A stretch of 64,000 nucleotides of DNA from NCBI GenBank assembly GCA_963833225.1, contig CAWHXD010000005.1:1-64000 (forward strand), given 5' to 3'. Positions within the stretch are counted from its first letter, which is position 1; each line of letters opens with the position of its first letter. A program made the translations under genes and the position numbers. This document shows, in pieces, positions 1,672 to 51,962 of the stretch. The notes under the pieces were generated by a model, which was not told the DNA's origin, did not search any database, and saw only the letters and a program-made list of their open reading frames with translations. This stretch comes from an uncultured Chloroflexia bacterium (GTDB lineage: Bacteria; Chloroflexota; Limnocylindria; Limnocylindrales; CSP1-4).

Positions 1672-3381
1672 TGTTCGCGTCTCCTTTCCAACTATTTTTA
1701 ATTTCAGTAAGTTTCTGCTATTTTATCTTGCCCGCTGAAAATGAATCCATTAAGTCCAGTTTGCTAGCCAATTTTGCGCAAACTTCAGCTTCATATTTTC
1801 CAGCCACGTCATACAATTCCACTTAGGGAGTCCGTTAAGTAAATCTGTCATAACTTCTTCGGTTACATTTGGTTTTGCACAGACAACTGACATAATCCGG
1901 TTGTTCATTCACAATCCACTCATTTGCTTCCTTAGCATTTGTAAATACTGGACTCCACTCTGAATGGATGCCTCCCGTAGCTAAAAATCCACTAACAAAA
2001 TCTGCCCGTGGTTTAACATCTTTTAATTCTCCAAATGTGACTAACACTGTTTTTGGTTGTTGTTCTTGAAAATGTGTTCTTATCTTTTCAAAAGGTTCTG
2101 CTAGACGTCCTTCTACTATCGATACCATCAGATTCTACTAAATGCAGAAGCTGACAAATCTGCATAGATATTCGTGCCAATTAGTGACTTCGTACCTACT
2201 TGCAACATCTTCTGCAGTGGCTGAACTGTTGTGCTTTAAACAGTTGTTCAAGTTTCCCACATTCGACATATGTGCTATAGCCACCAGCCGCATCAATTTC
2301 AACAAACAATTCCCAAGCTTTATCCACAAGTTCATTGGTCAAAGTATCGATAAAATAGGAACCGCCCGAAGGATCGAGTACTTTATCTACAAGTGTTTCT
2401 TCTTTAATAACGAGTTGAACATTCTGTGCGTAACGAATTGATGCGGGAGTCGTGTCCTGTTAATACATTATGTGGATGAACAGTAATCACATCAGCTCCA
2501 CCAAGAACAGCTGAAAACGCTTCATTCCCTGCCCTCAATAAATTGACATACGGATCAAATTTTGAATAAGACCGAAGAGACGTTTCCGTTAAAATCGGAA
2601 TATGACCAACCGATGTTTCACCAAATGATGTTCCAAATGCTTGCCACAAAACTCGAAAAGCACGGATTTTTGCAATTTCCATAAAGAAATGAGTATCAAT
2701 TGCGAAACGAACGAAAAATTGTTCGCTAAACTCATGAAATGTTTGTATAAGCAGTTGCTAGTCTCCGCACCTTGAGCAATTGCAAGAGCCAGCTCTGTGA
2801 CAGCATCTGCACCGTTTAGATGCGACACTGCGTAAATCTGCAGCAAATTGTTCGGACATTTGTATAACCTGCTGGTAAACTGCCACCTCTGTAAGCGAAA
2901 CAGCTCCCCGCACCTTGTCGTTCGATCTTCTGGTATACAAGATCAAACACTTTAAGTAATTGGTCATCTTTGCGTCGTATTTGTCATGAATATCGGATAT
3001 GACGTCACAAGCTCTGCTAATTTCATTAAGTGACTTTTCATCCCATTCAAGTTGTTTTGTCCCGTCATAGACAATTGCTTCATTACCCCGTTCAATCGAA
3101 TTTTTAAGCTCGTACAACAAATGATTGCCCATCCGTTAGCATATTGCTGTTGAGCAACAATCCAACCTGGCTTGTTGTTTTGCAGTCTCTAATCGTTGCA
3201 ATTGTGTCCGTATAATCTGCTTCGTCCCGCAGTATATAACGGTTGTAAATCAATTCCTTCAGATGTTTTTGTAATCAGTTTTTCAAAAGGCTTTCCCTCT
3301 TAATGATTTAACAGCAACTTCTTTCCATTCTAAATAATTTACGTCTTCAAAAGTCGTTGTTTTCATTGTATGTATAGTCAT
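1668..3381 (-). CDS. Methylmalonyl-CoA mutase small subunit (many frameshifts)
   Basis: Fragments [45 protein letters not shown]; ATG at 3381 with GGAGG RBS; directly upstream of the large subunit. Confidence 0.85.
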
Positions 3382-3452
3382 TTTTCGATTCCCTCCTCAA
3401 ACTACTAAACTTACCTCTATTTTACATGAGCATGCTAGCACATTGTAAGGTC

Positions 3453-3486
3453 AAAAAGCCCGGAACCGATAATTCAGGTTCCAGGC
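3453..3486 (-). terminator. Intrinsic terminator after bkdB
   Basis: - strand GCCTGGAACC-loop-GGTTCCGGGC followed by TTTTT. Confidence 0.8.
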
Positions 3487-3494
3487 GGTATAAT

Positions 3495-4793
3495 TTAATA
3501 AATTGATGTGTTTTCTGCAGAAATATTTTCAAGAATTTCTTTCACACGTGCAAGGAAACGTCCGCAACGAGTCCATCAAGTACACGGTGATCGAGTGACA
3601 GACATAGGTTAACCATATCACGTGCGGCAATCATGCCACCGTCCATGATAACTGGACGTTTAACAATCGATTCGACTTGAAGAATTGCCGCTTGTGGATG
3701 ATTAATAATTCCCATCGATTGAACAGAACCGAATGAACCCGTATTATTCACTGTAAATGTTCCGCCTTGCATTTCAGCCGATTTCAATTTTCCTGTACGT
3801 ACTTTCGTCGCAAGTTCTTGAATATCACGGCCAATGCCTTTAATTGTTTTTTCGTCGGCATGATTAATAACTGGAACAAACAATGAATCTTCTGTTGCAA
3901 CAGCGATTGAAATATTAATATCTTTTTTCTGAATAATTTTGTCGCCAGCCCACATTGAATTCATCATCGGGAATTCTTTCAATGCTTGTGATACTGCTTT
4001 CACAAAAAATGCAAAGTATGTTAAGTTGAAGCCTTCCTTTTGTTTGAACTCATTTTTCAATGAATCACGGTAAGCAACAAGGTTTGTTACATCGACTTCA
4101 ATCATCATCCATGCATGTGGTGCTTCATGTTTCGAGCGCAGCATATTGTTCGCGATCGCACGACGAACGCCCGTTACTGGAATTTCAATATCGCCAGCCG
4201 ATACAGGAACTTCCGCTTTTGGTTGTGGTGCATGTAGCTGGTGCGGCTGAGTTGGTGCTGGTTGCTGCAGCTTCTTGAATCAGGTGCTGCTTTTGGAATA
4301 TTTCCACTTTCGATAATCGCTAAAAGATCTTTACGTGTAATTCGTCCACCTCGTCCTGTACCTTCAACGAGTGATAAATCAATATCATTTTCTTGTGAAA
4401 GACGAAGAACTGCCGGTGAATATCGTCCACTTGCACTTTTATCCCGCTTAATCGGTGAAGTTGGTTGTAGTGAACCTTCTGCCGGCATTTCATTAGCAGG
4501 TTCTTCTTTTGCTGGTGACGCAGCTACTTGTGGTTCTGTCGGTTCACTGCTCCTTCAGTTTCAATCACACAAACGATTGCCCCGACTTCTAGTGTTTCTC
4601 CTTCTTGTGCAATTAATTCTTTAATCGTTCCACTAAACGATGAAGGAACTTCAGCATTTACTTTATCTGTATTCACTTCAGCGAGCGGATCATATTTATT
4701 TACTGTATCGCCTGGTTTCACAAGCCATTTCTCAATGGTACCTTCTGTCACACTTTCACCGAGTTGCGGCATTAAAATATTTTCAATAGCCAA
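3495..4793 (-). CDS. bkdB: Branched-chain 2-oxo acid dehydrogenase E2, dihydrolipoamide acyltransferase (frameshifted)
   Basis: Lipoyl domain MPQLGESVTEG..TDKV, E3-binding SPAVLRL..GTGRGGRIT, catalytic DHRVLDG. Confidence 0.93.
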
Positions 4794-4814: not shown

Positions 4815-5798
4815 TTAAAATTCAGCAAGTTCACGTGCTGCTTTTTCGACTTTGTCTGGATTCATCATAAAGAATCTTCTCCATTGTCGGTGCATATGGC
4901 ATTGCAGGAACATCTGGTCCTGCAATACGTTTAATTGGTGCATCGAGATCAAACAGGCAATTTTCAGCAATAATTGCTGCAACTTCACCCATGATGCTTC
5001 CTTCTATATTATCTTCTGTTACAAGAAGTACTTTCCCTGTTTTAGAAGCGCTTCAATAATCGCTTCTTTATCGAGTGGATAAACAGTCCGTAAATCAAGA
5101 ATATGTGTTGAAATCCCATCTTCTGCAAGACGTTCAGCCGCTTGAAGTGCAAAGTGAACACAAAGTCCGTACGTGATAATTGTAATGTCATCACCTTCAC
5201 GTTTAACATCTGCTTTTCCGATCGGAAGTACATAATCATCATCTGGAACTTCCCTTTAATTAAACGATAAGCACGTTTATGTTCAAAAAATAAGACTGGA
5301 TCTTCATCACGAATTGCTGCTTTTAAAAGACCTTTCGCATCATAAGGTGTGGAAGGAATAACAATTTTCAAACCAGGTGTGCTTGCAAACATCGCTTCAA
5401 CAGATTGTGAATGATAAAGTGCGCCGTGAACGCCGCCGCCAAATGGTGCACGAATGACAATTGGACATGACCAATCATTATTTGAACGATAACGAATTTT
5501 TGCAGCTTCAGAAACAATTTGGTTCACTGCTGGCATGATGAAATCAGCAAATTGCATTTCAGCAATTGGACGCAAGCCCGTACATTGCCGCACCAATTCC
5601 GACACCTGCAATTGCAGATTCTGCAAGTGGTGCATCAATAACACGGTCTTCCCCAAATTGATCGTAAAGACCTTGTGTTGCTTTAAAAACGCCACCTTTT
5701 ACACCAACATCTTCTCCAAGAACGAAAACACGATCATCTCGTTCCATTTCTTCTTTCATAGCCAGTGTGATCGCATCAATATAAGACATGACAGCCAT
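4815..5798 (-). CDS. bkdAB: Branched-chain 2-oxo acid dehydrogenase E1 beta (frameshifted)
   Basis: [39 protein letters not shown]. Confidence 0.93.
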
Positions 5799-6812
5799 TA
5801 TTCGTTCCCCCCTTCTTCAGCATACACATGAAGGAGCGCAGATTCAGGCATCTGCATACGGAGCATTTTCCGCATAATCAGTTGCTTCGTTTACTTCTTT
5901 CATAATGCGTTCTTCCATTTCTTTTTCAAATTCATCAGTTAAAACGCCGACTTCTTTTAAATAAGCAGCAAATGTAATGATTCGGATCTTTTGCTTTTTC
6001 TATTTTCAAGTTCTTCTGCATGAACGATATTGACGATGATCATCATCAGAGGAGTGAGATGTCAATCGATAACAAACCGTTTCAACTAAGGCTTGGACCT
6101 TCACCGCGACGTGCACGGTCTGCCGCTTCTTTTACAACACGATAAACTTCAAGTGGATCTGTTCCGTCAACTGTAACACCCGGCATGCCATAACCAATTG
6201 CACGGTCTGAAACATTTTCAGCACGCAAGTTGTTTTTCAATTGGAACAGAAATCGCATATTTATTGTTTTCAACCATAATAACAGTTGGTAATTTATGAA
6301 CACCGGCAAAGTTCATTCCTTCATGGAAATCACCTTGGTTGGAAGAACCTTCTCCAAGTGTAACAAATGTAATGAAATCTTCCTTTTTCATTTTCGCAGC
6401 AAGTGCAACACCGACTGCATGTGGAAATTGTGTTGTAACAGGAGATGAACCTGTTAAAATACGATTTTTTCTTTGACCAAAGTGACCTGGCATTTGACGT
6501 CCACCTGAGTTCGGATCTTCCGCTTTTGCAAATGCAGAAAGCATTAAATCTTTTGTTGTCATTCCAAAATGAAGAACAACACCCATATCACGGTAATAAG
6601 GTGCAATCCAGTCTTTATCTTTATCAAGTGCAAATGCTGCTCCAACTTGTGCTGCTTCTTGTCCTTGACAAGAAATAACAAATGGAATTTTCCCTGCACG
6701 GTTCAATAGCCACATCCGTTCATCGATTCGACGTGCCATCGAACATCGTTTCAAAAATTTTTAATACATCTTCATTTGTTAATCCAAGTTCTTCATGACG
6801 ATTTTTTGCCAT
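5798..6812 (-). CDS. bkdAA: Branched-chain 2-oxo acid dehydrogenase E1 alpha (frameshifted)
   Basis: GQEAAQVG, PYYRD, GGRQMPGH, TPP motif GEGSSNQGDFHEGMNFA..ENNKYAIS. Confidence 0.93.
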
Positions 6813-42927: not shown

Positions 42928-45126
42928 TCACGCGTCCCGGACAGCGCGCACAAACGTGCCGCCGACACCCGCCGCAATCGAGATCACCCCCGCCCCGATG
43001 ATCACCGGAGCGGCCGTGAACAGCTCCACCAGGACGCCGCCCGCCGCCATCGCCAGGCTCATCCCACCGAACACCAGCGCGAACCGGAAGCTCACCACGC
43101 GTCCCATCAGCTCCGGCGGCGTGCGCTCCTGGAACAGCGTCTGGCTGGGGATCACGAAGGCCATGTTCGCGACGCCCATCCCGAACAGGATCCCGAGCAC
43201 CGCGGTCACGTTGCCCACCAGCCCCAGCGCCACCCCGCCCACCCCGAACGCGATGTACGCCACGATGATCAGCCGCCCCTTGCGAGCCCGGCCGGCGACC
43301 GCGCCCAGCAGGAACCCGCCGATCAGGCTGCCCGCGCCGATCGCCGTCTCCATGAACGCGTAGGTCGCGCGCCAGGCCGGCTCCGGTGCCGTGGTGATCT
43401 CGCGAGCGAGGATCACCGTGGCCACCAGCAGCATGCCCAGCGAGAACTGGCCCGCGGCGCCCTGGAGCGTGTTCGCGAGGAGCACCGTCTCGTTGCGCAG
43501 GAAGCCCCAGCCGGCCCGGAGATCCTCGCCAACCGACGTGCGTCCCTCGTCCGTGCGCGGTGTCTCGCCCGCCGTCTCGCCGGCGGTCTCGGCGTCGCCC
43601 GGCCTCGCCGCTGCGGCGGCACGGCGGATCAGCGGCGGCACCACGATCGTGGCGATCAGGCCCGCGGACGCGAGATACGTCACCGAGTCGAACCAGAAGG
43701 CGAGCGCCAGGGAGTCCCGGAGGAAGACCACGAACAGGCCCGCCAGCGGGTAGTTGATGACGTCCGCGATCGTCTCCGCCACCCACATCGCGGAGTTGGC
43801 CGAAAGCAGGTCCTCCTCGTCCACGATGCGCGGCAGGATCGCCTGCCTGGCCGGCCGGAAGAAGATCGAGATCGTGGTCAGCAGGAACACCAGCGGGTAG
43901 GCGACCCAGACGTTGAGCAGGATCGCGACCGGCACCAGCAGCACCACCGCCGCTCGCAGGATGTCCGACACCACCAGGACCTGCTTCTGGTCCCAGCGGT
44001 CGACGAAGGTGCCCGCGATCGGCGACAGGAACAGGTTGGGGACCGTGGCCACAAAGAACATCAGCGCCGTGAGCAGCGCGGAGTCGGTCAGCTCGTACAC
44101 GAACGCTGCCAGCGCGATCTGGTTCACGCGATCGCCGAACAGGCTGATGATCTGGCCCACCCACAGGGCCGAGAACGACGGATTGAGCGCGAGGCGGACG
44201 TAGGGGTGGCTCCGGACGCGCTCGGCCAGCGAGGGCAGGCCCGGAACCCCGAGCCTGACCAGGTCTCCTGGGGCAATCGTGTTCTCGCGGACCACCGCCG
44301 CGGCGTGCTGGCCGCGGGAGGTCAGCTCCACGGCTCGCGCCTCCGCCTCCTCGAGGGGGAATGGCGCCAGCGCTGGCGACGCGAGACCGATGCCACCGGC
44401 GCCCATCATCAGCGGCCGCTCGAGCGCCAGGGCTTCGTCGAAGGCCGAGTTCAGGCCCGAGCCCGCCCGGACCGCATTGCCTTCCTCGTCGACCGGCGCC
44501 AGGGTCCCCGGCAGGCGCAGCGTGCCCGCCAGGCCCTCGTATCGGCCCGCACGGGCGTCGTCAACCGCTTGCTGGGCCTGCTCCGGGCGCCGGAGCAGCG
44601 TCGCGAACAGGAAGAAGCCAAGACCCGCCGTGAGGAACACGTCGCCAAGCGAGGCAACGTTCTGGATCGGCGGGAAGGGGATCGGGATGATGTCGCCCAG
44701 CGGTCCGAGGCGGAACAGGAACTCTGGCCCGATCTGCGCGGGCAGCGTGAAGTGCAGGACCGAGTCCAGCGGCGGCGTCAGCCCCGACGCCTCGAACGCC
44801 GGCAGCCACACCGGCATCCGGCCGCCGTTGGCCGTGATCGCGAGGGCGTTGGCCGCCACGCCCACGAACGCCAGAGCCAGGCCCGGGTACCAACGGTTGT
44901 GCCACAGCGTGAACAGCAGGAGCCCGTAGGCAGATCCCAGGAGTGGGGCGCGCAGCGTCTCGACCAGGGGGATGTTCCAGCCCAGTGCGAGCTCCGTCGC
45001 GAACCGGATGATGACCGCGAGGAACAGCAGCGGCAGGAACCGCAGTCGGATCGTCGCGAGGTGCTCGAGCTTGCCGCCGAGCAAGAGGCCGAGGACCAGC
45101 CCGAGGATGATCCCGATGGTCAGCAA
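42928..45126 (-). CDS. DUF5317-like membrane domain fused to an MFS transporter (MefA/EntS-like)
   Basis: N-term GGKL..L, NALAITANGGRMPV, LGPLGDIIP..SLGDV; linker; then FSALWVGQIISLFGD, AGTFVDRWD, FFRPARQAILP, QERTPPELMGRV in one 732-aa frame. Confidence 0.8.
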   Translation of the reverse strand: MLTIGIILGLVLGLLLGGKLEHLATIRLRFLPLLFLAVIIRFATELALGWNIPLVETLRAPLLGSAYGLLLFTLWHNRWYPGLALAFVGVAANALAITANGGRMPVWLPAFEASGLTPPLDSVLHFTLPAQIGPEFLFRLGPLGDIIPIPFPPIQNVASLGDVFLTAGLGFFLFATLLRRPEQAQQAVDDARAGRYEGLAGTLRLPGTLAPVDEEGNAVRAGSGLNSAFDEALALERPLMMGAGGIGLASPALAPFPLEEAEARAVELTSRGQHAAAVVRENTIAPGDLVRLGVPGLPSLAERVRSHPYVRLALNPSFSALWVGQIISLFGDRVNQIALAAFVYELTDSALLTALMFFVATVPNLFLSPIAGTFVDRWDQKQVLVVSDILRAAVVLLVPVAILLNVWVAYPLVFLLTTISIFFRPARQAILPRIVDEEDLLSANSAMWVAETIADVINYPLAGLFVVFLRDSLALAFWFDSVTYLASAGLIATIVVPPLIRRAAAAARPGDAETAGETAGETPRTDEGRTSVGEDLRAGWGFLRNETVLLANTLQGAAGQFSLGMLLVATVILAREITTAPEPAWRATYAFMETAIGAGSLIGGFLLGAVAGRARKGRLIIVAYIAFGVGGVALGLVGNVTAVLGILFGMGVANMAFVIPSQTLFQERTPPELMGRVVSFRFALVFGGMSLAMAAGGVLVELFTAAPVIIGAGVISIAAGVGGTFVRAVRDA

Positions 45127-45160
45127 GGCTCAGCCCCGGGGTGGGAGAGGGACCGCGGGG

Positions 45161-46657
45161 TCAGCGTGGCTCAGCCGGGCGGGCCGCCCGTGCCGTCGGC
45201 GGCACGACGTTCACGGATCCCGGGCTCGCCGCGGGCGCCGCTCCTGGGCCTGGCGCCACGCCCGCGGGCTGCCCCGTGCCCGAGGCCAGCGCGGCCCCCG
45301 GGTTGGGGTGCTGTCCGATGAGGGGGATCGGTTGCGGCTGGATCGTGCGACCCGGGTCCGCCACACCTTCTGCCCAGTGCGTCTGGACGAAGGCGTCCAC
45401 GATCCTCGGGTCGAACTGGATCCCTGCGAACTTGCGCAGCTCGGCGATCGCCTGCTCAGGCGTGAGCGGCGTCATGCGGTATGGGCGTGCCGCCGTCATC
45501 GCCTCGAACGAGTCCGCCACGTGGAGGATCCGCGCCAGCAGCGGGATCTCGTCGCCGATCAGGCGGTCCGGGTAGCCCGAGCCGTTGTACCACTCGTGGT
45601 GGTGCCGGATGATCGGCAACTCCCGGGACAGCCGGTTCACCTTCTCGATGATCTGGGCACCCAGGACTGGGTGCGAGTTCATCATGATCCGCTCCTCCTT
45701 GGTCAAGCGGTCCTGCTTGAGGAGCACGGCGTCTGGCACCCCGATCTTGCCGACATCGTGGAGGAGACCACCCCATTCAAGCGCCTCGAGGTCCGCCGCG
45801 CCCAGCCGCATCACCCGCCCGATGTCGCCGCCGATCTCCTTCACCCGCCAGGAGTGGCGGCTCGTGTACGGGTCGCGCTTGTCAACGGCCTCTGCCAGGG
45901 CCGTGATCGTCTGGGTGAACATCTCGCGCATCTCGGTGTAGTTCCGGTACGCGAGGCGGGTCATGTAGAGCGGCAGGGCGAACAGCAGGCTCGCCCACGC
46001 GGCGATCACATAGATCTGGGCCATCAGCCAGCCGATCGGCGCGAGGCTCACGATGCTCGTGGCAACGGAGCGCGACTCGGCCCGAATGATGCTCGCGGCG
46101 CTCTCCTCGGTCCTCAGGGAAACGCTGAACGCCACCAAACCGGCGTTCACCGCGAGGAACACGGCCCCGCCCGCCAGTGCCACCAGGAAGATCGTCGGCG
46201 AACCTAGAGCCTGACTCCAGGCTGCCGGGTCTTGCGGCGGGACGCCAAGGGCCATCATGAAGAGTCCCGCCACGACGGCCGGCACGATGATCTCAGCGTG
46301 GTTGGACAGGGTTCCGTACCAAGGCACGCGGCCCCGAAGCTCGCGAACTTCTGTGGTCCCGAGGAGGCCGACCCATGCCCCTGCCGTCGGCCCGCCGACG
46401 ATGGTCGCCGCCGTGATCGTCGACACGGAGACGGCAAACATGGCACCCCGAGGCATCTTGACGGGCAAGGAAGATGCGACGAGGGTCACCAAGATCCAGA
46501 ACGCTAGCCCGGCGACGGGGGCGAGGTCCCCAAACTCCACGAAGCCTGCCGCGATCGGTGAGGTGGCACGCAGGGGAAATAGAAGAGTCGTGGCGACAAG
46601 CGCGACTGCGCTCGTTGCCACGACCCCTGCGATGTAGAGCTTCAGTTTCCTCGGCAT
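45161..46657 (-). CDS. Membrane-bound HD-GYP cyclic dinucleotide phosphodiesterase
   Basis: About 7 N-terminal hydrophobic helices; DPYTSRHS, LHDVGKIG, HHEWYNGSGYP, VADSFEAM..RPYR, GIQFDP. Confidence 0.92.
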   Translation of the reverse strand: MPRKLKLYIAGVVATSAVALVATTLLFPLRATSPIAAGFVEFGDLAPVAGLAFWILVTLVASSLPVKMPRGAMFAVSVSTITAATIVGGPTAGAWVGLLGTTEVRELRGRVPWYGTLSNHAEIIVPAVVAGLFMMALGVPPQDPAAWSQALGSPTIFLVALAGGAVFLAVNAGLVAFSVSLRTEESAASIIRAESRSVATSIVSLAPIGWLMAQIYVIAAWASLLFALPLYMTRLAYRNYTEMREMFTQTITALAEAVDKRDPYTSRHSWRVKEIGGDIGRVMRLGAADLEALEWGGLLHDVGKIGVPDAVLLKQDRLTKEERIMMNSHPVLGAQIIEKVNRLSRELPIIRHHHEWYNGSGYPDRLIGDEIPLLARILHVADSFEAMTAARPYRMTPLTPEQAIAELRKFAGIQFDPRIVDAFVQTHWAEGVADPGRTIQPQPIPLIGQHPNPGAALASGTGQPAGVAPGPGAAPAASPGSVNVVPPTARAARPAEPR

Positions 46658-46745
46658 CCGTCCCCAGTTCCCGATGTACTTCGGGACTCTAGCCCGTCCG
46701 CCCTATCTCAGTGAACAGGACTTGAGTACTGAGGTGGAGTTGAGG

Positions 46746-46835
46746 CTAGAAGCCCCGAAGTGACGCTCCCCCGGCGAGTGCCACGGCGGCAACAGCGCTC
46801 AGGGCAACCAGGACACGCAGAAGGCGATCCTTCAT
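46746..46835 (-). CDS. 29-aa hydrophobic micro-peptide MKDRLLRVLVALSAVAAVALAGGASLRGF (not in ORF track)
   Basis: ATG at 46835, GGAGGA RBS 7 nt upstream, TAG at 46746-48; basic N-term, hydrophobic core, GG, short tail ending in an aromatic residue. Confidence 0.8.
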   Translation of the reverse strand: MKDRLLRVLVALSAVAAVALAGGASLRGF

Positions 46836-46857
46836 CGGTCGATCCTCCGCGCCCCTT

Positions 46858-46890
46858 CTACCAGGACTTGAAAGCCTTGGTCGGTCCCAC
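46858..46890 (-). CDS. Putative 10-aa upstream micro-ORF MGPTKAFKSW
   Basis: GTG at 46890 with GAGGAGGA RBS 6 nt upstream; same GGAGGATCGA context as the 29-aa ORF. Confidence 0.4.
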   Translation of the reverse strand: MGPTKAFKSW

Positions 46891-46912
46891 GCTCGATCCT
46901 CCTCGCGGCTCC

Positions 46913-47066
46913 CGTGTCCCTTCCAGGAACACGAAAACCGACCTGACTCGAAAGTCGGTCGGTTGCACTACTCGCTCCACCCTCACCCTAAGTGCCCAGT
47001 TCAGGTGAGGGCATCTGCGCGTCCGAGCGTTCTTTGTGGCCCAGTACGTTCGTACTAGTACGGGCC
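46913..47066 (-). ncRNA. Putative structured 5' leader RNA (four consecutive stem-loops)
   Basis: Stems at 46913-46933, 46936-46964, 46973-47029 and 47038-47066, paired by eye. Confidence 0.45.
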
Positions 47067-47119
47067 GGACTATAGGTAGCCCGGACACCACCGGTCAATA
47101 CGCAACCCTACCTATGTCC
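47067..47119 (-). promoter_or_regulatory. Sigma70-type promoter with overlapping inverted repeat
   Basis: TTGACC (47093-98) N18 TATAGT (47069-74); inverted repeat ATAGGTAG (47072-79) / CTACCTAT (47108-15). Confidence 0.6.
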
Positions 47120-47173
47120 ACCGATCCAGATCGGCTCACTTCCGCCCGACACTTGGCACAGGCGGCGCGGAGA

Positions 47174-50100
47174 CTAGATGTCCTCGTAGGAGGGAGGCTC
47201 CGCGGCCAGTTCGCTCCGGACATACGCTGCGTAGTGGGCGTACTGCTCGGCCGCAGCGGCCCGTCGCCCACTCCGCTTGTATGCTCGCAACAACTCAAGC
47301 TCTATTGCATCGGCTTGCGGATCCACCGCAAGGACGGCTTGGCCGACGCGGATCGCCGCATCGTAGTCGGCTCGCTGTTGGCTACGGGTCATCTCCGCTT
47401 CAGAGGCCGCCAAGACCGCGGCATGAAGATTCTCACGGTAGGTCGACGCCCATTCCTCGTAGGCGAATGTGAGCGCATAGCGGCCGCGGTAGTTGCGCAG
47501 CAACTCGAAGAGGGCCTGGTCATCACCTTCCTTCGCGCTGTCGATCAGAAGCCAGCACTTACGACTCACCACGTTGACGAGTCCGTCGTTCAGGCTCACG
47601 ACGTCACCGTCGAACTGGATGTAGCCGGCGCTCATGCCCTCGCGGTAGTCGGGTTCGAGCACTCTGCGAAGGAAGTAGATGGCCTGGTGTAAGGAGTTAC
47701 CCCCCGCCTCAACCCCTAGTTCGGGCCACAGTGCTTCGATCACTTCTTCCCTGTTGGCGGACATCCGAGGTCGCGATGCAAGGAAGCAGACGAGCGAGAG
47801 GACCTTCCGCCTCAGGTATCGGGGCTGATCCTCGCCCTCGAGGAACACCTCGACGGCCCCCAAATCCGAGACTGTCACTGCGCCTGCAAGCCTCTTCGTG
47901 ATCGCCAGCGCGCTGGGTCGAAGGGACTTGTTCGTACTCGCAGCCTTGCGCAGCAGGGCGGCATCCTCGGCAGACCCGACCTCCGCCAAGATTGCGCTGG
48001 CGAACACGGCTGCTTCCAGGTTCCCTCGGATCGCTTGCACCACCGGGGAACGCCAACGATCGGGCCGAAGCTTGGCTTCACGTTCGAGCATGGCCCGACT
48101 TTCAGCCGAGAGCAGGTGAAGCCTCACGACCAGTTCCTCGGCCAGCAGCGACCAGCAATAGGCCCCGGAGGCACTCCGTGAGAGGGCCTCATCAAGTGGC
48201 ACCCCAGTTGCCGCATCGACGAGCAGAGCGGCAAGGTATGAGCCGCGGCGCGTGTTCTGAGCACCCGCGACACGAGAGGCCTCCTCGGCCGCGGCCTTTG
48301 CCGCCGGATCGCCCTTGTGGAGAGCAACACGTGTCGCGAGGATCTGTGTTCTCAACTTGCCGGCGGCGTCGGCGCATCGATCTTGGCCAAGGCGCGTCAG
48401 GCTCGCTAGGGCCGCCGAGGTGTCCCCTTGGCGAAGGGCGGTCTCGCCGACAAGGAGGTTGTAAATGCCCACATGCCCTCGGGACAGCAGCGTCGGGTCA
48501 AGGTGCTGGAGCCACACACTCGCCTCGTCCGCCGATCCGAACTCGGTCTCTATCCGCGCCGCCTCGAGGCAGACTTCGGCGTTCGCGAGCAGGCTTCCCG
48601 CAGGTGCTGCGCAAGACGTGATCGCGCGCGACTCGGCCAGCCGCCCCAATTGGGCCTCTGCGGCAGCCACCATCATCGTCGCGGACACTCGCTCCACCGA
48701 TCCGTGCGCGCGGCCACCTAGGAGTGTTTCCGCCAGCGAGGCTTCCCTGAGCGCGTCTGCCGCGTCACCCAGCCAGAGAAGTACGCCGGAGAGGTTCAGC
48801 CGCGACACGCCCGCATACCGACTGCGCCCCTCCCTCTCCTGGTCGGCGGCCAACCTCCGAAGCGACTCGGCAATCTCGAGCAGATCCCCTTCTTGACTGG
48901 CCTGCATCAGGGTCAGATTGGCGAGGGCGACATAGCGCTGCGGTGGAGTGAGCGCCTCCCTAAGGGCCCGGGCGTTGGCCTCGGCAGCCTCGTCAGCGAC
49001 GCCGAACACCCCGAGGGTTGAGGCCAGCGTCAGAAGCGAGAGTCCGCTGAGTGTGCCGCCTGCGCTTTGCTCGACTGCCACTCGCGCCCATCGGACGGCC
49101 GTCGGGAAGTCTCCGCGCTGCAGTTCCAACCTCGAGCGAAGGATGAGGGCAGTAGGGCGGTCTGGGTCTCCGGCACCAGCGTCCAGAAACCCCCTTGCGA
49201 GTTCGAATTCCCCGGCGGCGATGATCTCCTCGAGCGAGCTGTCCACGACCGACGCACAGGCTTGGATGTCACCCGCCATCAGGTAGTGCCATGCGCTCAC
49301 GTTCCATCCGAACGCCCTGAGCTCCACGGCCAACGATCGATGCAAGTCCCTGACTGCCTGCCCGCCAATGCTCGCGGCAAGCCGTGTTTGGAGGAACTCC
49401 TGAACCAGCGGATGAAACCGATGTGGTGACACACGGTCCGGCTTCGTCAGCAGGCCAAGGCGCTCCGCATCCGCAATCGCCCGGCGCGCATGCTCGTCGT
49501 CAACTTGGCCGACAGAGATTGCAGACGCCACATCAACCGTCGTCAGAACCGATGCTCGCATGAGGAAGTCGGTCAGGTCACTTGGCAAGGAGGCAAGCAC
49601 CTCCTCGGCAAGGAAGTCGTACATGTCGCTCGCCGATGCCCTGAGGTGAGCTACAAAATCACGCGGGTCTTGTCGCTCCGCGAGTCGGGCGTTTACTAGG
49701 GTCAGGAGGGCTGGCCAGCCGTCGGTTCGCTCGCAGAGATCGGAGACAAGGTCCTGGTCCAGGGGGTGCCGGTAGGCGTCACGGAACAGGCTTGATGTCT
49801 CGGCGACGTCAAAACGGAGGTCCTGTCCGCTCAGGGCCATGACCCCACCGCGAGCCCGGAGGCGGCCGACGGCGAGCGAGGGCTTCGACCGCGACGCGAG
49901 GATCACGGAGAACCCTGGCCCGGTGCGGTCGAGCAGGGCACGGACGATGGGCTCGGTCTCGTCGAACCCGTCGACGAGGTGGTAGTCGTCAATGATCAGG
50001 GTCAGGCCGCGCTCGCTGCGAGTGCCGAACTCTGCCATCTCGCGCGCGATGGTGAGCACGAGGTCCTTCTGCGTTGGACCCCCGGTGCCCAGGGCGAGCA

Positions 50101-50686
50101 GCATAGCGAAGGTGGTCGGCGCGAAGCCCGGCTGGAGTTCGCGCCCGGAGGCGACGAGGTGACGCACGAACGTCAGCCAGTCGCGGTCGTCCGCCTCCAG
50201 GCGGTACCAGGCGGTCATCCGCCGCGTGTGCCGGGCCCAGTCGCCCAGGAGCGTGGTCTTGCCGAAGCCGGCCTCGGCGATGATCAGGCCGAGACGGCCC
50301 GCCGCAGCCTGTTCCAGCCACGAGTTCAGACGAGGTCGCGAGAGCGTGTCGCTGCGCTTGAGAGGGCAGTGGATCTTGGCCGGCTGGACGGGCAGCGGAT
50401 TCATGCCGTACGCACCGGACCCCAGGATCGGCCCGGCGAACCCAGGCCCGACGGCGACCAACCCATGCCCGTCGTGTGCACTCCTCCCGGGCGACGCGGG
50501 CCGCGCTTCCGCGGACGGGGTGGCGCCGCTGTTGGTGCCTGACGATACGGCAGGTTGTGGCGCGGAGGTCGGCTCCCCATGCACCCGGGGATGCACCCGG
50601 GCGGATTGCCCGCCGGATGAGGCGCGGTCGCTGATGGGCTGGCTGGTCGTCGGGGGCATGGCGACATCGTGCCGTGTGCCACTCAA
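47174..50686 (-). CDS. Large MalT-like STAND ATPase regulator with TPR-like middle and C-terminal BTAD-like region (true start may be 50405 or 50659)
   Basis: PAKIHCP..RPRL, Walker A AEAGFGKTTLL, LIIDDYH, TDGWPA, YDFLAEEVL, RFHPLVQEFL; C-term REEVIEALWPE, LHQAIYFLRRVLEP, YRGRY..YEEWA. Confidence 0.85.
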   Translation of the reverse strand: MSGTRHDVAMPPTTSQPISDRASSGGQSARVHPRVHGEPTSAPQPAVSSGTNSGATPSAEARPASPGRSAHDGHGLVAVGPGFAGPILGSGAYGMNPLPVQPAKIHCPLKRSDTLSRPRLNSWLEQAAAGRLGLIIAEAGFGKTTLLGDWARHTRRMTAWYRLEADDRDWLTFVRHLVASGRELQPGFAPTTFAMLLALGTGGPTQKDLVLTIAREMAEFGTRSERGLTLIIDDYHLVDGFDETEPIVRALLDRTGPGFSVILASRSKPSLAVGRLRARGGVMALSGQDLRFDVAETSSLFRDAYRHPLDQDLVSDLCERTDGWPALLTLVNARLAERQDPRDFVAHLRASASDMYDFLAEEVLASLPSDLTDFLMRASVLTTVDVASAISVGQVDDEHARRAIADAERLGLLTKPDRVSPHRFHPLVQEFLQTRLAASIGGQAVRDLHRSLAVELRAFGWNVSAWHYLMAGDIQACASVVDSSLEEIIAAGEFELARGFLDAGAGDPDRPTALILRSRLELQRGDFPTAVRWARVAVEQSAGGTLSGLSLLTLASTLGVFGVADEAAEANARALREALTPPQRYVALANLTLMQASQEGDLLEIAESLRRLAADQEREGRSRYAGVSRLNLSGVLLWLGDAADALREASLAETLLGGRAHGSVERVSATMMVAAAEAQLGRLAESRAITSCAAPAGSLLANAEVCLEAARIETEFGSADEASVWLQHLDPTLLSRGHVGIYNLLVGETALRQGDTSAALASLTRLGQDRCADAAGKLRTQILATRVALHKGDPAAKAAAEEASRVAGAQNTRRGSYLAALLVDAATGVPLDEALSRSASGAYCWSLLAEELVVRLHLLSAESRAMLEREAKLRPDRWRSPVVQAIRGNLEAAVFASAILAEVGSAEDAALLRKAASTNKSLRPSALAITKRLAGAVTVSDLGAVEVFLEGEDQPRYLRRKVLSLVCFLASRPRMSANREEVIEALWPELGVEAGGNSLHQAIYFLRRVLEPDYREGMSAGYIQFDGDVVSLNDGLVNVVSRKCWLLIDSAKEGDDQALFELLRNYRGRYALTFAYEEWASTYRENLHAAVLAASEAEMTRSQQRADYDAAIRVGQAVLAVDPQADAIELELLRAYKRSGRRAAAAEQYAHYAAYVRSELAAEPPSYEDI

Positions 50687-50750: not shown

Positions 50751-50954
50751 TCAGCCCTCGTACTCGAACCCGATCTTGAGCTGGACCTGGTACTCGACGA
50801 TCTCGCCGTCCTCGATCCGCGCCGACGATTTCACGACGTCGACGGTCCGGATGTTTCGGACGGTCTTGCTCGCGGTCGCGACGGCCTGCCGAGCGGCGTC
50901 ACTCCACGAGTTCGGGCTCGTGCCCACCATCTCGCGAACGATGATCACGCCCAC
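50751..50954 (-). CDS. Dodecin family flavin-binding protein
   Basis: EMVGTSPNSWSDAARQAVATASKTVRNI..EYQVQLKIGF; GTG with AGGAGG RBS. Confidence 0.88.
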   Translation of the reverse strand: MGVIIVREMVGTSPNSWSDAARQAVATASKTVRNIRTVDVVKSSARIEDGEIVEYQVQLKIGFEYEG

Positions 50955-51017
50955 TCCGATCCTCCTGCTGGTGTCGCGGCCCAGCATAGGCCAGCGTGGG
51001 GTTGGTAGGGTTCGACC

Positions 51018-51962
51018 ATGACGACACCTCGCCGCAAGTTCCTCATCGATACCGACACGGCCTCCGACGACGCCGTTGCCCTGGTCATGGCGCTGCGCGA
51101 TCCGGGCGTGGAGGTGCTGGCCATCACGGTGGTCGCGGGCAACGTTCCACTCGACCAGGCGGTGCAGAACGCCCTGTACACGGTGGAGCTGGTGGGGGCG
51201 AAGGTGCCGGTGCACGCGGGGGCGGCCGCGCCGCTGATCCAGCCCCTCCACACCGCCCAGGTGGTCCACGGACAGGACGGGATGGGCGACATCGGGCTGC
51301 CGGTCCGGGGTCGATCGCCGGCGCCGGGCCACGCCGTGGACCGTCTTGCCGAGCTGATCGAGGCTCATGCGCCGGGGGAGCTCACCCTGGTGACGCTGGG
51401 TCCGCTCACGAACATCGCGCTGCTGTTCGCGCGCCACCCGGAGTACGCGACCCGGCTGCGCGAGGTCGTCGTGATGGGCGGGACGGGTGACGGGATGGGG
51501 AACATCACCGCGGCCGCCGAGTTCAACATCTGGGTGGACCCCGAGGCCGCTGCGGTCGTCTACGGCGCTGGTGCCCGCCTCGTCCAGGTGGGCTGGGACA
51601 TCTCGCGCAAGTACGCGACGTTCGACGCGACGCAAGCGTCGGACCTGCGCGCGGTGGGCCGGCTGGGCGCGTTCTGCGTTGACATCCAGGCGGTGCTCAC
51701 GGCGTTTGCCCTGGAAGGGACGCACCTCGCTGGCTTCGACCTGCCGGACCCGATCGCGATGGCGGTCGCGCTTGATCCGACGATCGCCACGGACATGCCG
51801 TTCCTCAACGTCGTGGTCGAGACGCGGGGCGAGTACACCCGGGGCGAAACGGTGGTGGACCACACCGGGTACACGGGGCGGCCCGCCAACGCGCACGTGG
51901 TGCTGGAAGCCTCACGGGAGCGCTTCGTGGCTCTCCTGAAGGACCGGCTGCGCGAGGACTGA
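51018..51962 (+). CDS. Nucleoside hydrolase (IUNH family)
   Basis: IDTDTASDD, AGNV, HGQDGMGD, LGPLTNIA, AEFNIWVDPEAA. Confidence 0.93.
   Translation: MTTPRRKFLIDTDTASDDAVALVMALRDPGVEVLAITVVAGNVPLDQAVQNALYTVELVGAKVPVHAGAAAPLIQPLHTAQVVHGQDGMGDIGLPVRGRSPAPGHAVDRLAELIEAHAPGELTLVTLGPLTNIALLFARHPEYATRLREVVVMGGTGDGMGNITAAAEFNIWVDPEAAAVVYGAGARLVQVGWDISRKYATFDATQASDLRAVGRLGAFCVDIQAVLTAFALEGTHLAGFDLPDPIAMAVALDPTIATDMPFLNVVVETRGEYTRGETVVDHTGYTGRPANAHVVLEASRERFVALLKDRLRED

Follow-up and report, generated by a model that had tools for sequence, protein, structure and literature searches.

A window of 64,000 nucleotides (nt) from contig CAWHXD010000005.1 (GenBank assembly GCA_963833225.1; 3.9 Mb, 86% complete), which belongs to an uncultured Chloroflexota bacterium of the class Limnocylindria, carries on its minus strand a conserved signalling cassette that runs from a large, putatively STAND-type regulator through a promoter, a structured leader and two very short open reading frames (ORFs) to a membrane HD-GYP protein and a DUF5317 domain fused to a major facilitator superfamily (MFS) transporter. 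We consider it fairly probable that this cassette is a feedback operon controlled by cyclic di-GMP (c-di-GMP), in which the product of the second short ORF, a micro-protein of 29 residues, and DUF5317 act as an intramembrane input module for sensor domains of the MASE9 type. This reading is carried by a c-di-GMP-II riboswitch at the head of the operon, by selection on the 29-codon ORF at the protein level, and by the co-occurrence of the micro-protein and DUF5317 beside membrane signalling proteins in many phyla, which is a new result.

The whole arrangement recurs in relatives, with synteny of the regulator, micro-ORFs, HD-GYP and DUF5317-MFS genes across two families of the class, and the cassette is thus not a chance assembly. 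The original prediction, made from the letters of the window alone, had listed the parts in this order on the minus strand and proposed that they form a cassette for peptide quorum sensing; each part was found where it had been placed, and the synteny bears out the cassette.

Riboswitch, terminator and promoter

The leader matched the Rfam model of the c-di-GMP-II riboswitch (RF01786) over its full length (model positions 1-84 of 84) with 66.6 bits against a gathering score of 53.5 (E-value 1.6e-14), and no other family above threshold was returned by the Rfam scan of the 64-kb window. A structured leader had been rightly predicted here, without its identity as this riboswitch. An orthologue-level HD-GYP match was present in 18 of 24 genomes of the same genus. 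The aptamer was present in all 13 orthologous loci having upstream DNA; its score reached the cut-off in 10 of these and in 10 of 15 loci from other genera of the family and from a second family of the class. In a further family an aptamer of 52.7 bits stands ahead of HD-GYP and DUF5317 (G117, locus L077). The pseudoknot helix is paired in every one of 20 sequences; P2 and P3 differ between families f1 and f3, and the model is still matched. Locus L059 (masked over the leader), loci L070 and L071 (which end before it) and locus L068 (another locus type) were kept in denominators where stated. By covariance-model match and conservation the leader is a c-di-GMP-II riboswitch, with a predicted response to the ligand.

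The 5' arm of an intrinsic terminator consists of the 3' core and P1 strand of the aptamer (AACCGAC is common to both), and we regard the terminator as the expression platform for this reason. Its stem is invariant in all 20 aligned leaders, with compensatory changes in the upper part, and the same stem followed by a long U run occurs in a lower-G+C relative (L077). The minimum-free-energy fold computed without ligand has the terminator formed and P1 unformed. A second hairpin, just downstream, also has compensatory changes visible in the alignment. From this arrangement of strands we read the riboswitch as an ON switch, so that high c-di-GMP would induce the enzyme predicted to degrade it, a homeostatic negative feedback; if the direction is right, the operon is a clear case of such riboswitch-driven control in an uncultured soil and freshwater lineage. 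As in other c-di-GMP-II riboswitches, a full-length aptamer with a terminator overlapping its 3' strand stands in the leader of a c-di-GMP turnover gene; here, in contrast, it occurs in Chloroflexota (Limnocylindria), and two conserved micro-ORFs and a conserved spacer precede the enzyme gene. This arrangement was not found in literature searches on c-di-GMP-II riboswitches with HD-GYP or on HD-GYP with a small membrane protein.

The sigma-70-like promoter motif TTGACC-18-TATAGT was observed once against 0.1 sites expected in shuffles; the block around it is conserved in 14 of 14 genus-level sequences and also in other genera, and a stretch of 25 nt across the -35 region is conserved as well. 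Within 47044-47125 (minus strand), the two hexamers are flanked by an 8-bp inverted repeat, and a GTAC...GTAC palindrome or hairpin, kept in both families at variable spacing, lies between the -10 hexamer and the aptamer; its possible roles are those of an operator or of a 5'-terminal stem-loop. Two weaker full-length matches to the c-di-GMP-II model, both below the cut-off, occur elsewhere in the same genome (G000:C19:492964-493048 and G000:C6:331733-331818, both minus strand; 34.9 and 34.0 bits). Locus L068 carries a c-di-GMP-I-GGC riboswitch (RF03167; 2341-2421, minus strand; 61.1 bits against 59) ahead of the next gene after MFS-DUF5317.

The micro-protein gene and its association with DUF5317

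Over 22 orthologues, the ratio of nonsynonymous to synonymous polymorphism (pN/pS) was 0.31 for the reading frame of the 29-codon ORF; the alternative frames gave 1.12 and 2.42. Since the ratio is low only in frame, the ORF is, by this comparison of sequences, a real gene under selection at the protein level. Codons 21-28 each use 3-5 synonymous codons and their residues never change; the C-terminal third is invariant in 22 species and the N-terminal part varies. The ORF is intact in 12 of 13 genus-level loci and is frameshifted in L016, as is the HD-GYP gene of that locus. In the product of the ORF, a basic N-terminus leads into about 17-19 hydrophobic residues that end in AxGA, and a tail of 5 residues follows. 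Conserved genes of 25-40 codons are missed by gene callers, and this one, which is unannotated, is an example.

To find relatives, we seeded jackhmmer with the window peptide and used as target every stop-to-stop ORF tail in the fetched loci. Beyond the orthologues, related small ORFs adjoin DUF5317 in many other families; the type was found next to it in Chloroflexota, Bacillota, Atribacterota, Thermotogaceae and Actinomycetota, and is made up of a basic N-terminal part, a single hydrophobic helix that closes with AxGA and a tail of 3-14 residues that is often aromatic and basic. Among 34 diverse members only the start and the A-x-G-A at the helix end are invariant or nearly so. As a control, the iterated hidden Markov model (HMM) was run over the 67,631 ORF tails of the whole genome: the window peptide came first (39.0 bits), an ORF 240 nt downstream of the only other DUF5317 gene of the genome came second (32.7 bits), and the third-best tail scored 11.5 bits.

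HMM matches of at least 12 bits were obtained at 30 of 34 close, 31 of 40 phylum-wide and 37 of 80 cross-phylum DUF5317 loci, the cross-phylum matches including Caloranaerobacter, Atribacterota, Actinomycetota and Thermomicrobiales; first-round matches of at least 10 bits were present at 28 of the 80 loci. The Bacilli were missed by the HMM. By position, 22 of 24 Bacilli/Clostridia-type loci have an ORF of 24-41 codons with a ribosome binding site directly 3' of DUF5317, 20 of these 22 ORFs having one common C-terminal motif, and a Thermotogaceae contig has a small ORF beside DUF5317 too. DUF5317 is itself present in 92 of 301 sampled Chloroflexota genomes (the only tally that counts the unpublished genome G266) and in several other phyla. 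The original prediction had assigned the small ORF to the system and had staked itself on DUF5317/HD-GYP loci sharing a conserved one; the pN/pS of the window gene and the presence of its kin beside DUF5317 in many families and phyla, far beyond this clade, agree with both.

Gene order varies: peptide, HD-GYP, DUF5317; HD-GYP, MFS, DUF5317; DUF5317, peptide, enzyme; or regulator, peptide, DUF5317. Two copies of the small ORF stand in L077 (8128-8379, identical and in tandem), L136 (2104-2400) and L100 (5484-5680), and in L113 two copies lie 3.5 kb apart (2295-2396 and 5772-5873). The module also occurs in the cultured Geobacillus thermodenitrificans DSM 465, Paenibacillus species and Caloranaerobacter azorensis DSM 13643; in the last, a gene for a PrsW-family intramembrane metalloprotease (147.4 bits) lies directly 3' of DUF5317 (L144, 5665-6420, plus strand).

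Membrane sensor domains and their outputs

In the HD-GYP protein, a hydrophobic part of 240 residues at the N-terminus precedes an HD-GYP domain (HD_5, 136.8 bits), which makes up the C-terminal half. PDB relatives of this domain are 5z7c and 4mcw, in alignment with which the HD, HHE and GYP motifs are kept; the better of them, 5z7c, is a 3'3'-cyclic GMP-AMP (3'3'-cGAMP) phosphodiesterase. We predict the window protein to be a c-di-GMP phosphodiesterase. The N-terminal domain is called MASE9-like here because its score falls below the Pfam cut-off for MASE9. Its feature score to MASE9 clusters in an atlas search was 0.91, which we use as a lead only.

An HD-GYP gene lies near DUF5317 in 19 of 30 loci (within 1.5 kb on either side), 22 of 40 (6 kb) and 56 of 80 (5 kb). 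Other outputs also occur. The Geobacillus locus encodes a membrane domain followed by GGDEF and HD-GYP, and GAF-GGDEF-EAL is the output at the second DUF5317 locus of the window's genome and in G323. HisKA/HATPase_c kinases adjoin DUF5317 and the small ORF in two Chloroflexaceae-type genomes (L089, 137-1705, minus strand; L090, 7809-9482, plus strand); in tblastn comparisons with the window MASE9-like domain the membrane part of the L089 kinase matched (E-value 5e-7) and the L090 kinase gave no match. What stays constant is the pair of DUF5317 and micro-protein together with a membrane domain of this kind, and the output domain differs. Since the pair also stands beside GGDEF-EAL proteins and histidine kinases, the link would be to the MASE9-like membrane domain and not to HD-GYP output as such, to which the original prediction had tied it. 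At the second locus of the window's genome (G000:C19:273755-277469, equivalent to L104 3090-6804) DUF5317 starts 5 nt after the gene of a 942-residue membrane-GAF-GGDEF-EAL protein, and next comes a small ORF that belongs to the family of the micro-protein.

The multi-pass N-terminal membrane domain followed by HD-GYP is also the layout of the MASE9-HD-GYP proteins T. maritima TM1467 and S. venezuelae HdgA, as described in the preprint on MASE9 (bioRxiv 10.1101/2021.11.05.467447); its main text makes no mention of DUF5317, a small ORF or a riboswitch. Its authors propose that the ligand binds within the membrane (bioRxiv 10.1101/2021.11.05.467447), which would fit a single-pass partner. As far as that source goes, MASE9-type sensor domains have no known ligand, and the micro-protein with its DUF5317 neighbour offers a concrete and cheap hypothesis for what they read.

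Small membrane proteins that modulate sensor proteins have precedents in MgrB and SafA, which act with PhoQ. In both cases the gene of a membrane sensor adjoins that of a single-pass protein of 25-45 residues, which probably acts by contact between helices. Unlike MgrB and SafA, the micro-protein comes with a second conserved protein, the five-helix DUF5317, accompanies second-messenger enzymes as well as kinases, and spans several phyla.

Proposed mechanism and points that weigh against it

We propose that transcription from the conserved promoter, on which the neighbouring STAND/TPR/BTAD regulator would act, reaches the riboswitch. With c-di-GMP bound, the aptamer would keep the shared strand, no terminator would form, and RNA polymerase would read through into a transcript encoding micro-ORF 1, the micro-protein, the membrane HD-GYP protein and DUF5317-MFS. 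The micro-protein and DUF5317, as obligate companions, would then form the input module in the membrane for the MASE9-like domain. The micro-protein would lie with its N-terminus inside and its C-terminus outside, placing its AxGA end and aromatic-basic tail at the outer membrane face with the invariant residues of DUF5317; DUF5317 would either hold it or trim it, and the two together would set the activity of the attached enzyme.

Several observations weigh against this proposal. On the RNA side, the terminator of the window has a short U run (4 U, then CGUGUU). RNA-library contigs (4 runs, 4 studies) span 46629-47052, both micro-ORFs included, and speak for expression of this stretch, but these contigs stem from relatives, may contain DNA and cannot rank genes; their cover over the HD-GYP body (45100-46600) is thin or absent, which carries no meaning either way, and the run shares are small (at most 0.18), so that no habitat is named. 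The enzyme departs from the canonical motif, the Asp of HHExxDGxGYP being Asn in 50 of 52 Limnocylindria-type orthologues against 6 of 78 other HD-GYP neighbours of DUF5317. (In the window protein this Asn is residue 358, encoded at 45584-45586.)

The sensor domain matches MASE9 (PF20972) at only 17.3 bits (E-value 0.0048), under the cut-off of 24.3 and unlike the Caloranaerobacter relative of the same arrangement (L144), which passes with 25.5 bits; L077 scores 13.3 bits. Profile comparisons of the MASE9-like domain were weak, to the GGDEF-EAL protein (E-value 0.0023, probability 13%) and to the Geobacillus protein (E-value 1.9e-4, probability 48%) alike, and suggest only weak homology to their membrane domains.

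The association also has gaps: no small ORF of at least 12 bits was found in 9 of the 40 phylum-wide and 43 of the 80 cross-phylum loci, and the position-based scans were made without a shuffled or genomic control, so that only the HMM counts are controlled. A three-chain structure prediction of the MASE9-like domain, DUF5317 and the peptide scored 0.45, 0.48 and 0.45, which by the rule of the method speaks neither for nor against binding, and a peptide of fewer than 30 residues is outside the calibration of the complex prediction; the swap controls gave 0.00 and 0.00 with the partner swapped and 0.52 with chain 1 swapped. Finally, three features fit an exported product: the micro-protein has the look of a Sec signal peptide, the residues at -1 and -3 of the conserved motif being small, its gene is tandemly duplicated in several loci, and DUF5317 in this clade is fused to an efflux-type MFS.

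Possible peptide release and the role of DUF5317

These last features also bear on peptide signalling, which we consider unlikely. Here the micro-protein would be a precursor cut after AxGA by signal peptidase or DUF5317, releasing a C-terminal peptide of 4-12 residues with the help of the MFS in this clade; the peptide would be sensed outside by MASE9 or, after uptake, by the TPR part of the regulator, and cell density would feed into c-di-GMP. The signal-peptide-like layout, the repeated genes in L077, L136, L113 and L100, and the MFS (fused to DUF5317 as a 'secretion effector'/DHA3-type protein in f1 and f3, separate and adjoining in f17) would all be expected of it, as would a regulator gene neighbouring that of the peptide at 16 of 40 Chloroflexota loci, the likeness of the micro-ORF 1 C-terminus to the peptide tail, and two invariant Asp and one Ser of DUF5317 at the predicted outer face.

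The tail itself argues otherwise: it is constant over 22 species while the N-terminal part varies, which is not the diversification of a pherotype, and at 20 Bacilli loci it is no more than 3-5 residues long beyond the conserved Gly. Most loci have neither an exporter nor an importer, and the neighbours of the pair include histidine kinases and GGDEF-EAL proteins as well. With a c-di-GMP-II riboswitch as its leader, the operon would respond to c-di-GMP inside the cell, and its first-order logic would be c-di-GMP feedback and not cell density. The quorum sensing of the original prediction, which had overlooked the riboswitch, is not established by these data, and a secreted quorum signal is a weaker reading than an intramembrane partner.

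Known peptide quorum-sensing systems such as agr and RRNPP likewise combine a small ORF with neighbouring genes for a membrane protein, a transporter and a regulator whose sensor domain is of the TPR type, but the tail of the micro-protein does not diversify and control lies with an intracellular c-di-GMP riboswitch. Pfam and NCBIfam scans of the three large cassette proteins returned no AgrB, AgrC, RRNPP or Opp homologue, and the likeness to agr remains an analogy.

DUF5317 (PF17248) occupies about residues 1-180 of the fusion protein (82.5 bits against a cut-off of 25; profile positions 2-150 of 151), and literature searches returned no mention of either name. Its AlphaFold2 model (mean predicted local distance difference test score 87.8) shows five long helices, of which helices 4 and 5 are separated by a beta hairpin. 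Ten residues are invariant among 26 diverse sequences (G89, N93, G102, M104, P105, D145, S159, G161, D162 and G168). In the model, the cluster that they form (NGGxMP, Asp145, SxGD) would face outward, level with the AxGA end of the micro-protein, because the cytoplasmic loops hold basic residues and the following MFS must start inside.

Foldseek with this model found no PDB match with an E-value below 1 (best 1.2), and an atlas search outside the own family of DUF5317 gave no usable match. Peptide release by DUF5317 thus lacks a fold match to a solved peptidase, and the maturation of a secreted peptide that the original prediction had ascribed to the domain found no support. We also considered DUF5317 as an intramembrane aspartyl protease of the GxGD type (prepilin peptidase, presenilin) and rejected it: besides the missing fold match, the two invariant Asp have a spacing of 17 residues, one standing where the beta hairpin begins and the other where the last helix does.

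A bolder version, which we hold to be rather improbable, would make DUF5317 a new juxtamembrane peptidase with outer-face Asp, Ser and Asp that cuts at AxGA. MASE9-type sensors, joined in Chloroflexota by the STAND/TPR regulator, would read the resulting aromatic-basic peptide of 4-12 residues, and micro-ORF 1 would supply a cytoplasmic mimic of this C-terminus. If true, this would be a widespread and unrecognised peptide route into c-di-GMP and two-component signalling, from Thermotogaceae to Bacilli.

The MFS fusion

The transporter part of the fusion is of the DHA3/MFS_3 type (MFS_1, 90.6 bits, and MFS_3, 53.8 bits, both above their cut-offs); it matches TIGR00900 with 181.7 bits, under the subfamily cut-off of 319.6, and also the NCBIfam models for LplT, EntS and Mef-type transporters. 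DUF5317 and MFS are fused throughout families f1 and f3 and are encoded by separate adjoining genes in family f17. Downstream of the HD-GYP gene of L068, the ORF at 2481-4511 encodes the reverse fusion, MFS-DUF5317.

Fusions in both orders and the match to LplT, EntS and Mef-type models would suit a small transporter or lipid-handling unit made of DUF5317 and the micro-protein, whose membrane substrate is sensed by the MASE9 domain, and the intramembrane binding of the MASE9 ligand proposed in the preprint would suit it as well. We give this idea little probability: outside the class most DUF5317 genes are neither fused to an MFS nor beside one, five helices and a beta hairpin are all that DUF5317 consists of, and Foldseek found no transporter fold match.

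Micro-ORF 1 and the spacer

Micro-ORF 1 and the 29-codon ORF are each preceded by a ribosome binding site of the GGAGG type. An ORF of the micro-ORF 1 type, with 8-10 codons and a strong ribosome binding site, is present in 32 of 32 Limnocylindria-type loci against 0 of 8 distant loci; besides the window, it stands at the corresponding position in loci of the ranges L004-L020, L054-L073 and L114-L122. Its middle is variable, its length and ends are conserved, and its C-terminus is K-[GSPA]-[WF]-stop throughout. This end resembles the last residues of the 29-residue peptide, and micro-ORF 1 may encode a mimic that acts in the cytoplasm, serve as a stalling leader or be left over from a duplication. 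The spacer between the micro-protein and HD-GYP genes (46658-46745) is highly conserved and matched no Rfam family. It contains an inner hairpin with compensatory changes, and its upstream CCUCAGU segment is complementary to the region of the HD-GYP ribosome binding site; with a fold z-score of only -1.57, its structure is not established.

Pairing of this segment with the HD-GYP ribosome binding site, and conservation of micro-ORF 1 in length and ends but not in its middle, are what one would expect if the riboswitch and HD-GYP sufficed, DUF5317-MFS were an unrelated transporter, and the micro-ORFs were leader peptides tuning HD-GYP translation in cis. c-di-GMP riboswitches ahead of c-di-GMP turnover genes are moreover a known arrangement. 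We nevertheless find so plain a feedback operon very unlikely, given the protein-level selection on the 29-codon ORF and the proximity of DUF5317 to HD-GYP genes in the three sets of loci given above. Kin of the small ORF also stand downstream of DUF5317, or beside it where there is neither a riboswitch nor an HD-GYP gene, which argues against a leader acting in cis, since such a leader would not occur there.

The upstream regulator

The regulator matched BTAD with 36.8 bits (cut-off 22.1); AAA_16 (28.3 bits) and Trans_reg_C (20.5 bits) stayed below their cut-offs of 32.6 and 26.2. NCBIfam MalT matched residues 102-496 with an E-value of 7e-56, far under the equivalog cut-off, and the true start of the protein may lie near residue 95. 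The predicted layout is a MalT-like NTPase N-terminal part, a helical middle and a C-terminal winged helix with BTAD, an order that we take to be the reverse of that in Streptomyces antibiotic regulatory proteins (SARPs) of the AfsR type. A homologue in L087 has AAA_16, TPR_MalT and BTAD.

Of the 17 canonical f1/f3 loci that include upstream DNA, 15 have the regulator gene in its syntenic place ahead of the operon, as do 10 of the 12 Limnocylindria-type loci in the cross-phylum scan, and similar genes flank DUF5317 in 16 of 40 Chloroflexota loci; none was present at loci outside Chloroflexota in the cross-phylum scan of 80. From its position, the regulator probably controls the operon promoter.

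Layout of the cassette and neighbouring genes

The cassette comprises three long ORFs in a region of about 63-75% G+C (Table 1). A 516-nt gap between the regulator and HD-GYP genes holds the promoter-like site, the structured element, the terminator-like hairpin and the two short ORFs.

Table 1. Features of the cassette, in order of transcription, with positions in the window and the evidence for each.
Feature	Position	Strand	Evidence
Regulator, putatively STAND-type, 1170 aa from TTG start	47174-50686	-	Pfam, NCBIfam
Sigma-70-like promoter site TTGACC-18-TATAGT	47069-47098	-	Motif scan, conservation
c-di-GMP-II riboswitch aptamer (RF01786)	46949-47033	-	Rfam
Intrinsic terminator (hairpin 46936-46960 within)	46926-46963	-	Predicted fold, alignment
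Second hairpin, just 5' of the micro-ORF 1 ribosome binding site	46910-46936	-	Predicted fold
Micro-ORF 1, 10 codons, GTG start, end K-x-W-stop	46858-46890	-	Ribosome binding site, conservation
Micro-protein gene, 29 codons	46746-46835	-	pN/pS, jackhmmer/HMM family
Conserved spacer before the HD-GYP gene	46658-46745	-	Alignment
Membrane HD-GYP protein, 498 aa, MASE9-like N-terminal domain of ~240 residues	45161-46657	-	Pfam, PDB relatives
DUF5317 fused to MFS transporter, 732 aa	42928-45126	-	Pfam, NCBIfam

Upstream of the regulator (window 50751-51962), a dodecin-domain ORF on the minus strand overlaps a nucleoside hydrolase ORF on the plus strand (IU_nuc_hydro, 295 bits); both look unrelated to the cassette.

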